A stretch of 64,000 nt of DNA, from NCBI RefSeq assembly GCF_041248615.1, contig NZ_CP158426.1. One strand, given 5' to 3'. Within the stretch, counting starts at the first letter, position 1, and every line of letters begins with the position of its first letter. This document shows, piece by piece, positions 57,601 to 63,600 of the stretch. The position numbers were made by a program. Origin of the DNA: Escherichia coli. Lineage in GTDB: Bacteria > Pseudomonadota > Gammaproteobacteria > Enterobacterales > Enterobacteriaceae.

Positions 57601-60600
57601 TTGAATAAGTGTGTTCCGGAGTAATCCAGAGCGCATGCTGCTTTACGTCTTTTTCAAGCCATGTTGGTTAAGCAAAAAGAGGTAGAAATAATTTCCTGAG
57701 AAATTAACTCAACATTCTGAAATGGCCAGTTTTCTGAAATTACCAGAAGACCGAATACATTCATGCCTGAAGAATGGATTAGAAGAAACGAGACGGAAAT
57801 AGATCTATTTATCCCTGCGGAAATAATTTCTGATGAAATTGTTTTCGGCTATTAAAAAGGTCAAACCGGCTGAGTGAATTTTATCCAGTTACAAACAAGT
57901 ATTACCTCCAGTGTATTGGTAGCTGTTAAGCCAGGGGCGGTAGCATACCTGAAGAGAATAGGATCACATCACCAAATGGCAAGAAGTGGATTTGAAGTCC
58001 AGAAAGTCACCGTAGAGGCATTATTTCTACGAGAAATACGAACACGCTTTGGTAAGTTCCGTCTGGGATATCTGTGGGCGATTCTCGAACCCTCTGCGCA
58101 TTTGCTGATACTGTTGGGCATTTTTGGTTACATTATGCACCGCACGATGCCAGACATCTCATTCCCGGTGTTTTTACTTAATGGCCTGATTCCCTTTTTT
58201 ATCTTTAGCAGTATCAGCAATCGTTCTGTAGGTGCTATTGAAGCGAATCAGGGGCTGTTTAATTATCGACCAGTAAAACCCATCGATACGATCATTGCGC
58301 GTGCATTGCTTGAGACACTGATTTACGTTGCTGTTTATATATTGCTTATGCTTATCGTCTGGATGGCAGGCGAATATTTCGAAATAACAAACTTTTTACA
58401 ACTTGTGCTCACCTGGAGTCTGCTGATCATTCTTTCATGTGGCGTCGGCTTAATATTCATGGTCGTTGGCAAAACCTTCCCTGAAATGCAAAAGGTCCTG
58501 CCGATACTGCTTAAGCCGCTGTATTTCATCTCCTGCATCATGTTCCCTTTACACTCGATTCCAAAGCAATACTGGTCATATCTACTCTGGAACCCATTAG
58601 TGCATGTCGTAGAGTTAAGCCGCGAGGCAGTTATGCCTGGCTATATCAGCGAAGGCGTGAGTCTGAACTACCTTGCAATGTTCACTCTGGTCACCCTGTT
58701 CATCGGTCTGGCGTTATACCGAACGCGTGAAGAGGCAATGCTGACATCATGATTAAAATTGAAAATTTGACGAAGTCATATCGCACGCCAGCGGGTCGAC
58801 ATTATGTCTTTAAGAATTTAAATATTGAAATCCCTTCAGGAAAAAGTGTTGCCTTTATTGGTCGCAACGGAGCGGGTAAATCAACGTTACTGAGAATGAT
58901 TGGCGGCATTGACCGCCCCGACAGTGGAAAGATCATCACTAATAAAACAATATCATGGCCAGTCGGCCTCGCAGGTGGATTTCAGGGAAGTTTAACCGGA
59001 CGCGAAAACGTAAAATTTGTTGCCCGGTTATACGCGAAGCAAGAAGAACTAAAAGAGAAAATTGAGTTTGTCGAAGAATTTGCCGAACTCGGTAAGTACT
59101 TCGATATGCCGATTAAAACTTACTCATCTGGTATGCGATCGCGTTTAGGCTTTGGTTTAAGCATGGCATTTAAGTTTGATTATTATATCGTCGATGAAGT
59201 AACCGCAGTCGGTGATGCCAGGTTTAAAGAAAAATGCGCTCAATTGTTTAAAGAAAGGCATAAAGAGTCTAGTTTTTTAATGGTTTCACATAGTTTGAAT
59301 TCATTGAAAGAGTTTTGTGATGTGGCCATTGTGTTTAAGGATGATAATGCGGTTGGTTTTTATGAGGATGTTCATGAGGGGATAAAATCATACCAAATAA
59401 ATGAAAATACAACTATTAAGATTTAGGCCATTACGTGAAGATATAATTTACACTCCCCAAGTTAATACATATAAGTAATTATATTAATAAATATTTATAA
59501 AAGGCATCTAAAGAATAGATGCTTAGAGCCACTTAAACTGCTGTATTGTCTAAATGTAAGAAATAACGAAATGGGTTTTTGGTGATTACTGTACTCAAAA
59601 GGAGTCAAGAATATGAAATCAATATTGTATTATTTAGAGCCACGTACAGAATTAAATGACAAATTATTTCGCTATGCAACACTACGCTCTTATCTACTAC
59701 CTGAAATTGATGGCCTTAGGATAGCTGATAAGAGCCTCGATTTTAAAATGATCGTTTCTCGTACGATTTATAATAAAGCAAAACAAAATAATTTAAAAAT
59801 GGAGGGTATCGATTTTATAATTATTGATGAAGATGTATTTGAAAAGAACTCATATCTGAAGAATATTAATGTTAGTAATGAATTATATCATGGGAATTTA
59901 AATATAAAGGCTAATGAAGAACTAAAATCAATCATATCTGCTTGCCTTCCTGTTGATTATAAACCAGATATTATTATTTCATATGAAAGCCCAGCTCCAT
60001 TTTTTAAAGAGATATTTCCATCATCTTTACTTTTAAACGCTATGTTTGGAATTTTTTCAAGGGCACCATTTCCTGCATATGGGTTATTAGACCCATGTGG
60101 TTTGTATGAATATTCATATCAATATAAATATGCTGATAAAATTCGTGCTGAGGAGATTTCAGAAGAAGAAAAGGAAGTTATAAAATTACTCAGAAGACAA
60201 AGTTCAAGAGCACTTGCTGCTTATCATCCTCTCAAGAAATATATTTCATCATTATATGAAAAATATGATCGACTTGTTGTATTAGCATGTCAAGTGGATA
60301 ACTATTTTTCTTATAATAGTTGTACCAATTATCCATCACAATATGCGATGGTGGAAGATGTTCTTTCTCAAGTTCCATCAAATATTGGTGTTATAGTTAC
60401 AGAACATGGCTATAAAAGACAAATAAGTGACGAGCAAATTGAGTCTTTAAATGAAAAATACAGTAATTTTATATATTTTTCTAAAAAAGATGTATTCACA
60501 CCAAGTCAATTTATTCTTCCTTATGTAGATGGTGCTTTATCAGTCTCGTCATCGATTGGTTATCAGGCTGCTTTATGGCAGATTCCATATTTTGGTCTTG

Positions 60601-63600
60601 GAAAATCACAAGTCGATGTACTCTGTTCAAATACATCATTAATGAGCTTCGTTAATGATGTTGAAAAAGGCATAAAGATTGATCGTGATAATATTCTTTA
60701 TGTTTTACTTTCAAAAGTTCACTTATCACATAAAAATGATTTGTTTAATGGAAAATCTTATCTAAATAAGTTGAAGGATTTATTTAATAAGTTTACCTCT
60801 AATTGCGACGAATATGAGTATTTTAACACTAAAAAAAGTATTGATGAAGTTCGAAAAGATATCATCTGTGGCAACAGAGAATGGTTACTGAAAAAAAACT
60901 TTATTGACTCAAAATTAGTTCCTGAAGTAGACCATTTACGTGTTGCAATGTCGCATTCAAAAGCGATCTCTTATGATCTTTTTGATACTCTTGTTGAACG
61001 TGATTTTGTTGAACCTCATGAATTATTTAATCTAATTGAATCCCGTGTACGTAATGAGTTAAACAATAAAAACTTCCCTTTCTATTATGTAAGACGACAA
61101 GCCGAAATTGACTTGCGCAGAGAGACAAGAGGTGAGTTTGAAATTACTCTCGATGAAATTTACGAAAGATTTCCAAGATACTTTGATCTTACTTTAGAAC
61201 AACTAGAGAAGATAAAAAATATAGAAATAGATGCTGAAGTCGAACTCGTTCATCCGAAAAAAGAAATGGTTCGTGAATTTTATTTTTCTCAAATGATTTG
61301 TGAAAGTGTATCTATCATTACAGATATTTATCTTTCTCAGAATGTTATTGAGCGTATTTTACAAAAAGTAAAAATTAGTGGTTACAATAAATTATTGGTT
61401 TCAGCAGAAACTAAAACAAGAAAACATAACGGAACTATTTATCCTGAATATTTGAAATATATAAGAGATAATTTTGATATTAATGCAGGACAGGCTCTTC
61501 ATGTCGGTGATAATAAACAAGCTGATGGTGATATGGCTAAAAAACATGGCATAAAAACATATGTATTTCAAAAAGCGATTGATAATTACAAAAAATCTTT
61601 AATTGCTGATATTTTACGTTCCAGTATTAATCATCCAGGTATTTCGAGTTCTGTTATTAATGGTTTGTTTGCTAACAAATATCACGCAGGACACTGGTTT
61701 AAAATTAACAAGGAATCAATTTTTAATGCTGACGAATATAATTATGGCTATATGGCAATAGGGCCTCTTGTTGTTGGCTTTACTCAGTGGTTGTATCGGC
61801 GGGTTAATAAATTAGGTATCAAAAAATTATATTTCTTATCCCGCGATGGATGGATTCTTAAAAAAACATTCGATTATTTTTATCCTGAATCATCATCTGG
61901 CATCAAGACCGAATACCTGTACAGCTCTCGTCGAACTGCAATGGTAGCATCGTTAAGAAATATTGATGATATTATTGAAGTTGCCTCTCAAAACTTCAAT
62001 GCTAGAAAGCTAAGTGACTTTTTATCTACTCGTTTTGGGCTGGATGTGGATACTGTTAAAAAATCTGTTCTTGAAAAATATAATTACAAGCATGACACTA
62101 TTGTTTCTCCTTATTTTGAATTTGGAAAGCTGATTGGTTTTTTAAAAGATATTCATCATACAATATTGTCTAATGCAAAAAATGAACGTGAAAGCTATAT
62201 CGATTATTTACGAGAAACTGGATTTGAAAATGATTGCTTAAATGGCGGTGCTACTGTTGTTGATATTGGTTACAGTGGTTCCATGCAATATTATTTAAAA
62301 AAAATACTGCAATGCCCTTGTGTGAACGGATTTTATTTTTTAACACATCACCATAGTCGTGATTATTTTTCAAATGATCATTTTGAAGGTTTCTTGCAAA
62401 ATCTTGATGATCATAAGATCGCTTATAGACATGGATTAAATGATCATGTGTTTATTTTTGAAGCAGCATTAAGTTCCCCTGAAGGAAGTCTGATTAAAAT
62501 GGAAGGGAAAGGTCAAGAAAGAGAAATGATTTTTCTCGAGGCAGAAGAAGAGATTGTAAGAAAAAATGCTCTATTAGGAACACATCGTGGCGTAATGGAC
62601 TTTGTTCATGATATCAAAACTCGTTTTGGTTCTTACTTTAAATACATTGAATTTTCTCCTATTCTTTCTTCTCAACTTATTTTGAATTTTGCGAATAATC
62701 CCAACGGTATAGATGCAGGGATGTTTGCTTCTCATGAAGTCGAAAATGTTTTTGGTGGGGGGTCTGTATGCTTAATTTCGCCTTTACTAGATTGCTATAA
62801 GGACTCTAATGGCACCATTAACCCTAAAATTATCGATGAGTTATTAAAAGCATCTAAATGGAAGAGAGGTGCCAGTGCTTATTATAACTTAGTCAATGGA
62901 ACTCAACCGCGAGTTAATCCTGCTAAAATGCCAGCGCCATCTGTTAACCCAGTTGTTGTGAAGCAAACGCCACAAACTACTTATGCACATCCTTTAAAGA
63001 CAACTACGCAGCGTAAACTTGCTAAGTTAAAAAAAGACCCATATTTATTCTTTAATGATTCCCAAAAACCTCTTTTAAAAAGTTTACGATTGTTCTTCAA
63101 AAATACATCAAAGCTTAATTAATATAATGTGAGTCGCACTATGGTGTGACTCTTTTTTATATGTCAGTGATAGTTATTAATGAAATATTTAATGCGCGAA
63201 GGTGTACGATTTTTACAATATTTAGAGACTGGTGGGTCAAATGAGTATTTCTTTGAAAAATATTGATTTTGCTAAAGGTCCTGTTGATTCCCTCCATCAT
63301 GATTATTACTTATGGCGAGGGAAGAACATTGAGGATAAAAGACTTTTTCTCGTTTTCTCATCTCGGGGAGCAGGTCCTGGAGAATTTAGTTTTTTCAAAA
63401 CTTTTGATGCGCTTAATGTAAATGTTTTGCATGTTACACCCTCTGATTTTTCATGGTACCAAAAAGGGTTAGTCGGTTTAGGGAGTGATTTGCCTTCTGC
63501 ATTTAAAGCCCTATCTGACCGAATAGATAATTTCTGTATTTATCATAAAATAAAACAAATTATCTGTGTAGGGGCTTCCATGGGAGGATATGGTGCTTTA

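Follow-up and report, generated by a model that had tools for sequence, protein, structure and literature searches.

A single large gene in a 64,000-nucleotide stretch of Escherichia coli DNA (RefSeq assembly GCF_041248615.1, contig NZ_CP158426.1; hereafter the window) is likely to encode the one serotype-specific polymerase of a group 2 (kps) capsule. [quoted passage not shown] The gene (59613–63122, + strand) starts with ATG and forms a single open reading frame (ORF) of 1169 amino acids, preceded by a Shine-Dalgarno sequence, AAGGAG, at 59599–59604 (+), 8 nt 5′ of the ATG. RefSeq holds the identical coding sequence as a “hypothetical protein” (WP_134355222.1), and in the kTYPr catalogue of capsule loci it corresponds to K107_10. 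Its GC content is 31.5%, compared with 42% for kpsMT and 56% for the upstream gsp genes.

The first-pass annotation of this DNA had described a very AT-rich ORF of this length, first after kpsT, with motifs of the haloacid dehalogenase (HAD) superfamily between two flanks that it could not place in a family. It read the product as a candidate multi-enzyme capsule polymerase of Bcs3 architecture making a teichoic-acid-like polymer, in a region 2 unlike those of K1 and K5. The ORF, the HAD motifs and the difference from K1 and K5 all hold, as does the idea of a capsule polymerase built around a HAD phosphatase, through homology to Bcs3 by sequence, profile and structure. The proposed polymer does not survive the analysis below. 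The capsule type, left unassigned, matches the catalogued K107, and for the chemistry, also left unassigned, a prediction is made below. The claim of novelty is weakened: an ORF of the same size with the same neighbour stands in the kTYPr supplement, and the architecture has been characterised biochemically for KrkA. The locus and domain architecture are already in the literature (K107; KrkA-type). What is new here is that, throughout the family of the N-terminal domain, the position of the nucleophile has changed from Asp, in most members to Tyr.

The phosphatase and ribosyltransferase modules

The central and C-terminal modules were assigned through Bcs3, the capsule polymerase of Haemophilus influenzae type b (Hib; PDB 8A0C/8A0M; PMC10299916). 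A single-sequence phmmer search against the PDB returned Bcs3 as the sole match (E 4e-28; query residues 424–786 against Bcs3 355–723). A family profile built from 39 full-length homologues matched Bcs3 residues 360–818 (E 3e-59) and also 7SHG, a dual-domain polysaccharide ribofuranosyltransferase from Thermobacillus composti, with profile positions 441–1047 aligned to residues 25–632 of its 648 (E 8.6e-53). With the full-length AlphaFold2 model (predicted local distance difference test score, pLDDT, 90.1; predicted template modelling score, pTM, 0.85), Foldseek matched both Bcs3 (E 1.8e-26) and 7SHG (E 3.6e-20).

Residues ~441–660 (60933–61592, +) form a HAD-type phosphoribosyl 5-phosphatase module homologous to the CrpP domain of Bcs3, with D455, D458-T459, K604, G632-D633 and D638 as key residues and the motifs DLFDTLV at 455–461 and GDNKQADGD at 632–640; NCBIfam HAD models match the protein weakly. 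Residues ~661–1098 (61593–62906, +) form a glycan phosphoribosyltransferase (gPRT) module dependent on 5-phosphoribosyl-1-pyrophosphate (PRPP), a homologue of CriT in Bcs3 and of the 7SHG gPRT. Allowing for a one-residue offset in PDB numbering, D455 aligns with Bcs3 D386 and D745 (SRDG) with D680, while the invariant D884 (VVDIGYSGS) stands at the position of E818. All three aspartates are invariant or nearly so among the full-length homologues, and their Bcs3 counterparts are all essential by mutagenesis (PMC10299916).

Bcs3 consists of a TagF-like domain, CroT (1–373), the HAD domain CrpP (374–591), a transferase of ribose-5-phosphate, CriT (592–1036), and an SH3b domain (PMC10299916). Since the match starts at about 355–360 and CroT ends at 373, the homology covers CrpP and CriT, not CroT, so that the Bcs3 architecture first proposed stands for these two modules and fails for the N-terminal one. 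The two proteins are both multi-enzyme capsule polymerases, share the phosphatase and ribose-5-phosphate transferase in the same order with the catalytic aspartates kept, and end in a C-terminal helical tail. They differ in the N-terminal module, which is TagF-like and uses cytidine diphosphate (CDP)-ribitol in Bcs3 but has a Kdo-transferase-type fold in the window protein, and in the product, a phosphodiester polymer in Bcs3 and a glycan as predicted here; SH3b has no clear counterpart, although no specific comparison was made. 7SHG, of an O-antigen-type ribofuranosyltransferase family, aligns nearly whole with residues ~441–1047 but is a stand-alone pair of phosphatase (PRP) and gPRT domains, whereas the window protein joins these two domains to a Kdo-transferase-like module and a C-terminal tail.

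The 7SHG match ends at 1047, and the roughly 50 residues from there to 1099 contain two short strands and a pair of helices. A predicted disordered linker follows (residues ~1099–1130; 62907–63002, +; pLDDT < 50), and then the C-terminal tail (1131–1169; 63003–63119, +), whose helices span 1131–1162. The tail carries the RKLAKLKKDPYLFF motif, with K1138 and P1143 nearly invariant, and its helices show the conserved pattern RKxxKLxxxPYxFFxDS. Over 62895–63086 (residues 1095–1158), the C-terminal end of the polymerase (RKLAKLKKDPYLFFNDS…) has 32% identity (E 1.7e-4) with the C-terminus (residues 476–532) of an otherwise unrelated GT99-type Kdo transferase encoded at 9050–10663 of a different K locus, L010, which is probably K12-like. 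The resemblance suggests a docking or membrane-association tail common to group 2 capsule transferases, and in the window polymerase the tail probably serves as a docking element for the membrane or the Kps complex.

The N-terminal domain has a predicted Kdo-transferase fold

Pfam detected nothing significant in either flanking segment, whether the whole protein or the N-terminal domain alone (residues 1–440; 59613–60932, +) was scanned, in agreement with the earlier failure to assign the flanks to a family. A profile of the domain likewise found no significant match among PDB sequences. The relationship to Kdo transferases emerged from structure prediction, hhalign and a GT99-type intermediate sequence. 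For the AlphaFold2 model of the domain (pLDDT 94.6, pTM 0.92), the top 14 PDB matches in Foldseek were all the β-Kdo transferase WbbB (E 1.5e-11; template modelling (TM) scores 0.61/0.68; 10–11% identity), followed by KrkA (E 3e-7, TM 0.35/0.43) and KpsC (E 7.5e-7). The best match, the GT99 domain of Raoultella terrigena WbbB (PDB 5FA1, 8CSD), covers the whole N-domain; WbbB differs in being a chain terminator in O-antigen synthesis rather than a polymerase module.

Hhalign of the N-domain family matched the C-terminal module of the locus’s own KpsC (E 2e-5) and KpsS (E 1.7e-4), which supports remote homology at the level of sequence profiles. Scanned singly, 9 of 28 homologous N-domains matched the Pfam family of KpsC and KpsS, Capsule_synth (PF05159), with E ≤ 0.001, and a protein of L010 annotated as a GT99-type “beta-Kdo transferase” matched the N-domain family hidden Markov model (HMM) over its full length (E 2e-17). 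Judged on the predicted model, the N-domain is a modified GT-B fold of the Kdo-transferase type seen in WbbB (GT99), KpsC (GT107) and KrkA (GT140), not a TagF-like fold. A homologue search from the N-domain alignment returned 8 proteins, and an exhaustive representative search was used instead; it gave 1,111 representatives (50% identity level) at E ≤ 0.001. Among 195 family sequences, 125 are fusion-sized (1050–1250 amino acids) and 21 are shorter than 500.

These results bear directly on the first proposal, a Bcs3-like polymerase with TagF-like domains on both sides of the phosphatase and a sugar- or alditol-phosphate product. The homology to Bcs3 is real, and E. coli does make such capsules (K18/K22/K100, K2). 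A true locus of the ribitol-phosphate type, L004 (NZ_CM128606.1), has a teichoic-acid-like region 2 at 7917–13867, presumably belonging to the K18/K22/K100 group, with genes for a 1107-residue CDP-glycerol glycerophosphotransferase (TagF)-family protein, a bifunctional cytidylyltransferase/short-chain dehydrogenase-reductase and a hypothetical protein; this is what the teichoic-acid-like model would look like at the same genomic position. In the window protein, by contrast, the Bcs3 match leaves out the TagF-like CroT, the Glyphos_transf family (PF04464) finds no match, and TagF (3L7J) ranked only 45th in Foldseek (TM 0.24), far below WbbB. The locus, unlike L004, also holds no cytidylyltransferase or reductase gene for CDP-ribitol or CDP-glycerol. 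We consider a teichoic-acid-like product extremely unlikely.

A minimal region 2 of type K107

The predicted Ribf-Kdo repeat follows from the content of the locus as well as from the fold. Beyond the window, the locus was read in a 99.7% identical genome (NZ_CP103742.1), where region 2 comprises two genes only, for the 1169-residue polymerase and a 329-residue protein; after them, kpsS, kpsC, kdsB/kpsU, kpsD, kpsE and kpsF lie on the opposite strand. No cytidylyltransferase or reductase gene for CDP-ribitol or CDP-glycerol is present in region 2 or elsewhere in that locus. The minimal region 2 sits inside a kps locus that supplies cytidine monophosphate (CMP)-Kdo through kpsF and kpsU. A WbbB-like N-domain fold, one other region 2 gene and no CDP-alditol genes together lead us to predict a Ribf-Kdo polymer, with PRPP and CMP-Kdo as the donors.

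The kTYPr paper (PMC13171606; Nat Microbiol 2026) catalogues all E. coli group 2/3 capsule loci. The supplement lists, in lineage G2A, K107_10 (1169 residues, HAD at 450–655) beside K107_9 (329 residues, α/β-hydrolase plus tetratricopeptide repeat (TPR) region), and gives identities of 28.3% for K107_10 with K16_8, 25.1% with K74_8 and 24.8% for K107_9 with K16_7. The window ORF and its neighbour match K107_10 and K107_9 in length and domain positions. Against an 1137-residue HAD-family ORF that we found in another locus (L003, 7890–11303; WP_021574015.1), which has the length of K16_8 and lies with a TPR protein gene, the window protein is 28.5–29% identical, and the partner genes 25%. Because ORF lengths, domains and identities reproduce the published values, we assign the window locus to K107 and L003 probably to K16. 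K107 is a genotype-defined type with a reported positive association with invasive disease. It falls in the set “K13_K23 to K19”, described as [quoted passage not shown], and Rib-Kdo repeats are confirmed by mass spectrometry for K13, K16, K19, K20, K23 and K97 (PMC13171606).

The closest functional precedent is KrkA of E. coli K13/K20/K23 (Govind et al., JBC 2026; PMC12887879; PDB 9YFX/9YFY/9YFZ), a 1113-residue protein whose N-terminal retaining β-Kdo transferase founds GT140. Fused to a HAD phosphatase and a PRPP transferase, this module allows KrkA alone to build →3)-β-Ribf-(1→7)-β-Kdop-(2→; in its Kdo transferase the base is Glu102, within a “YE” motif, the nucleophile is Asp193 of QXXXD, and an HP motif is also present (PMC12887879). 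Like the window protein, KrkA is one large region 2 polymerase (1113 versus 1169 residues) with a GT-B Kdo-transferase fold, HAD phosphatase, PRPP transferase and C-terminal tail in the same order, the tail being dispensable in KrkA. Its loci have a region 2 of two or three genes, including an acyltransferase, and it uses PRPP and CMP-Kdo. The ribosyl modules of the window protein are ~23% identical to a GT140-type protein. The N-domains are far more distant: neither the window sequence nor the family profile matched KrkA at E ≤ 10, although the KrkA structures were in the PDB set searched, and structural alignment gave 12% identity at TM 0.35/0.43. We also considered that the window protein might belong to the sequence type 131 (ST131) cluster “E_coli_O25b”, reported as 41% identical to KrkA (PMC12887879), and rejected this because its N-domain lacks sequence similarity to KrkA.

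Tyrosine replaces the nucleophile aspartate

The N-domain has Q227, H265, S312-S313 and Y124-E125, but Tyr231 occupies the position of the QXXXD nucleophile aspartate. Column counts were taken over 196 aligned N-domains, namely the 195 family sequences and that of the window. Q227, which aligns with the motif glutamine of KpsC (QVEDD), KpsS (QVYND) and the GT99-type protein of L010 (QLKDD), is glutamine in 193. At the aspartate position, four residues on, tyrosine occurs in 150, followed by His (16), Phe (9), Gln (7), Cys (3), Ser (2) and Glu (2); no member has aspartate. The motif reads QVDNY in both K107 and K141, QIDNY in the probable K16 enzyme and QVSAH in the polymerase of locus L006, while KrkA has QXXXD with HP, and D232, the covalent nucleophile of WbbB, is a tyrosine in K107. 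H265 aligns with the histidine of the HP motif (His 134, Tyr 56); K16 has VTNY where K107 has VTEH. The residue that follows is Gly266 in K107, in a column with 39 prolines and 34 glycines. Other positions are strongly conserved: R150 (188), D160 (178), D306 (183), S312 (185), S313 (189) and Q318 (178), with P152 and T263 also well kept among more than 190 members. E125, in a [YWF]E motif like the YE of KrkA, is glutamate in 122, and E9 is Glu or Asp in 171.

Such losses raise the question of whether the domain transfers Kdo at all. It might be a non-catalytic scaffold or oligomerisation hub, or transfer another sugar, so that the polymer would not be Rib-Kdo: the canonical nucleophile is missing and the HP motif reads H265-G266, the domain escapes Pfam and apparently dbCAN, and the KrkA N-domain doubles as a trimerisation hub (PMC12887879). 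However, conservation of the putative active-site residues Q227, R150, P152, T263, S312, S313 and Q318 in more than 190 members argues for catalysis. Region 2 has no other glycosyltransferase or sugar-nucleotide gene, the locus has its own CMP-Kdo genes, and K16, with the same two-gene set, contains Kdo. We regard a role other than Kdo transfer as very unlikely.

The donor, CMP-Kdo, is the β anomer. The closest relative of K107 with a published polysaccharide is K16 (Ribf-Ribf-α-Kdop): its probable polymerase belongs to the same N-domain family (HMM E 1e-117), with QxxxY and the same module order, and its partner α/β-hydrolase-TPR gene is homologous to K107_9. At 28.5–29% overall identity, linkage positions and the choice of a di- or trisaccharide repeat may differ between the two. 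The α-Kdop of K16 is reported in two papers (PMC12887879, PMC13171606), the kTYPr paper flagging a discrepancy over it that is left open there (PMC13171606). An α-Kdo product would require net inversion from CMP-β-Kdo. With the nucleophile aspartate lost, the motif glutamine for the Kdo carboxylate, the CMP-binding histidine and candidate bases (E125, E9) kept, and α-Kdop reported for the probable K16 member, we tentatively propose that the Kdo module acts by direct single displacement, as an inverting enzyme giving α-Kdo. With somewhat more reserve we extend this to the N-domain family, whose members are mostly fused to ribofuranosyltransferases: a GT99-type retaining scaffold may have become an inverting α-Kdo transferase as QXXXD changed to QXXX[Y/H/F/Q], in which case an α-Kdo-containing Ribf-Kdo polymer would be expected for K107.

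The same polymerase could instead carry a retaining β-Kdo transferase, with a different nucleophile, such as Tyr231 or some other carboxylate, and β-Kdo in the K107 polymer. Tyrosine serves as the nucleophile of retaining sialidases, which act on 2-keto-3-deoxy-acid sugars. The N-domain fold is that of retaining Kdo transferases, with Q227, H265 and the S312/S313 loop conserved; kTYPr labels the set GT99-like (PMC13171606), and Kdo is mostly β in E. coli group 2 capsules (PMC12887879). Yet the position varies among members (Phe 9, Gln 7, also Cys, Ser and Glu), and an essential nucleophile would not be expected to do so. The family has no other invariant carboxylate of its own, D160 and D306 aligning with conserved aspartates of KpsC, and the probable K16 member, with the same tyrosine, makes α-Kdo, a net inversion. 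We regard the retaining enzyme as rather unlikely, and favour inversion.

Several points weigh against these readings. The N-domain is 10–13% identical to any characterised Kdo transferase, so its donor specificity is only inferred, and K107 is defined by genotype, its polymer being a prediction. The equivalence of Tyr231 and WbbB D232 is drawn from alignment of the motif. For inversion in particular, the candidate base E125 is not invariant (Glu 122, Leu 21, gaps 41 of 196), and a retaining mechanism through a sialidase-like Tyr231 is conceivable. The single typed α-Kdo example is K16, assigned to L003 by ORF lengths and identity values, and any correlation between anomer and motif covers that type and not those with β-Kdop (K19, K97) or Kdof (K74, K95).

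A model for polymer assembly

By analogy with KrkA, Bcs3 and 7SHG, the polymer would grow on an oligo-Kdo lipid primer made by KpsS and KpsC. The C-terminal gPRT (D745/D884) would use PRPP to place ribose-5-phosphate on the terminal Kdo of the growing chain, the central HAD module (D455) would strip the 5-phosphate to leave β-Ribf, and the N-terminal GT99-like module would add Kdo to the ribose from CMP-β-Kdo, supplied by KpsF and KpsU of region 1. The disordered linker and C-terminal helices may anchor the polymerase at the membrane or at the export complex.

Besides the polymerase gene, region 2 has a single further gene, K107_9 (5′ part at 63241–64000, +), which runs past the end of the window. 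Its 329-residue product shows a weak Pfam match to α/β-hydrolases and a weak C-terminal TPR match, with a GASMGG nucleophile elbow (Ser113) and Asp182/185 and His208 in common with the K16_7-like protein. Capsule O-acetyltransferases with an α/β-hydrolase fold exist, and K107_9 is a candidate O-acetyltransferase that would probably acetylate the polymer.

Related capsule loci

The K13, K19 and K97 loci were sought by sampling kpsT classes and probing with a G2B kpsT. This yielded a locus that is probably K16, besides others that are K12-like, K18/K22/K100-like or of types K104, K141 and K24; none for K19, K97, K74 or K95 was among those sampled. As a control, the 1103-residue K104_9 polymerase of the K104 reference (L014, NZ_CP007392.1, 9757–13068) matched KrkA at E 6.5e-77 and carries GQTLTD, YELSEQ and HP; the window protein shares only its ribosyl modules, at 22.7% identity. 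By sequence comparison, E. coli Ribf-Kdo polymerases thus comprise at least two N-domain lineages without detectable similarity to each other, set on homologous ribosyl modules: GT140 in K13/K20/K23 and K104, and GT99-like in K107, the probable K16, K141 and the L006 protein.

The L006 polymerase (NZ_CP159698.1, 6917–10369), a 1150-residue member of the GT99-like family, is paired with a 199-residue hypothetical protein, and the locus matched no K type in the accessible part of the catalogue. The K24 reference (L015, NZ_CP074024.1, 1619–5759) encodes one protein each of the GT29 and TagF families, a small protein resembling cytidylyltransferases and a TPR protein of 385 residues, exactly as long as the product of the probable K16 partner gene. 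K24 contains α-Kdo but is uninformative for the N-domain family, as its α-Kdo is evidently installed by a different, GT29-type route.

Distribution and genomic context

Of 5426 complete E. coli genomes, 21 carry the polymerase gene (≥ 99% nucleotide identity over its full length), in one copy each. All 21 copies are chromosomal and annotated “hypothetical protein”, and the carriers include O25b:H4-ST131 blood isolates as well as isolates from chicken meat and river water. The kpsT allele of the window (≥ 99%) was found in only 10 genomes, compared with 21 for the polymerase. In NZ_CM192165.1 the same region 2 adjoins a kpsT (L002, 7001–7672) that is 96.9% identical and encodes 223 rather than 225 residues. 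One and the same region 2 thus occurs beside more than one region 3 allele, which indicates recombination where the two regions meet.

The gspC–M type II secretion genes are followed by the region 3 genes kpsM (ABC transporter permease; 57976–58752, +) and kpsT (ABC transporter ATPase; 58749–59426, +), with the polymerase directly downstream. Between gspM/yghD and kpsM, about 1.1 kb of AT-rich non-coding DNA (56826–57975; GC 0.35–0.41) marks where the core chromosome meets the kps island and contains the region 3 promoter region. A promoter scan gave matches at shuffle expectation. An ops/JUMPStart core, GGCGGTAG, lies at 57936–57943 (+), 33 nt 5′ of the RefSeq kpsM start, where an RfaH-dependent region 3 element is expected; the 8-mer alone is not significant, with 1.45 chance occurrences expected. 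A mechanical ORF from GTG 57874 would overrun this core, and we therefore take 57976 as the true kpsM start. A terminator-like hairpin with a T-run (63131–63152, +; a pattern match with a 9-bp stem and five GC pairs) begins 9 nt past the polymerase stop codon and ~90 nt 5′ of the next region 2 gene. Its placement is odd for an operon supposedly read through from region 3, and the number of such sites equals the shuffle expectation.

Implications

If, as is probable, the K107 capsule is a Ribf-Kdo glycan that a single polymerase assembles from two housekeeping donors, the antigen could be synthesised enzymatically and taken into glycoconjugate work, along the lines followed for Hib and proposed for K13. 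The Asp-to-Tyr change offers a concrete test of how α-linked Kdo enters capsules, and of whether a double-displacement Kdo-transferase scaffold can be converted to an inverting enzyme. If the N-domain does invert, it would explain the α-Kdo of K16, constitute a new glycosyltransferase family and represent a natural switch from retaining to inverting catalysis on one fold.

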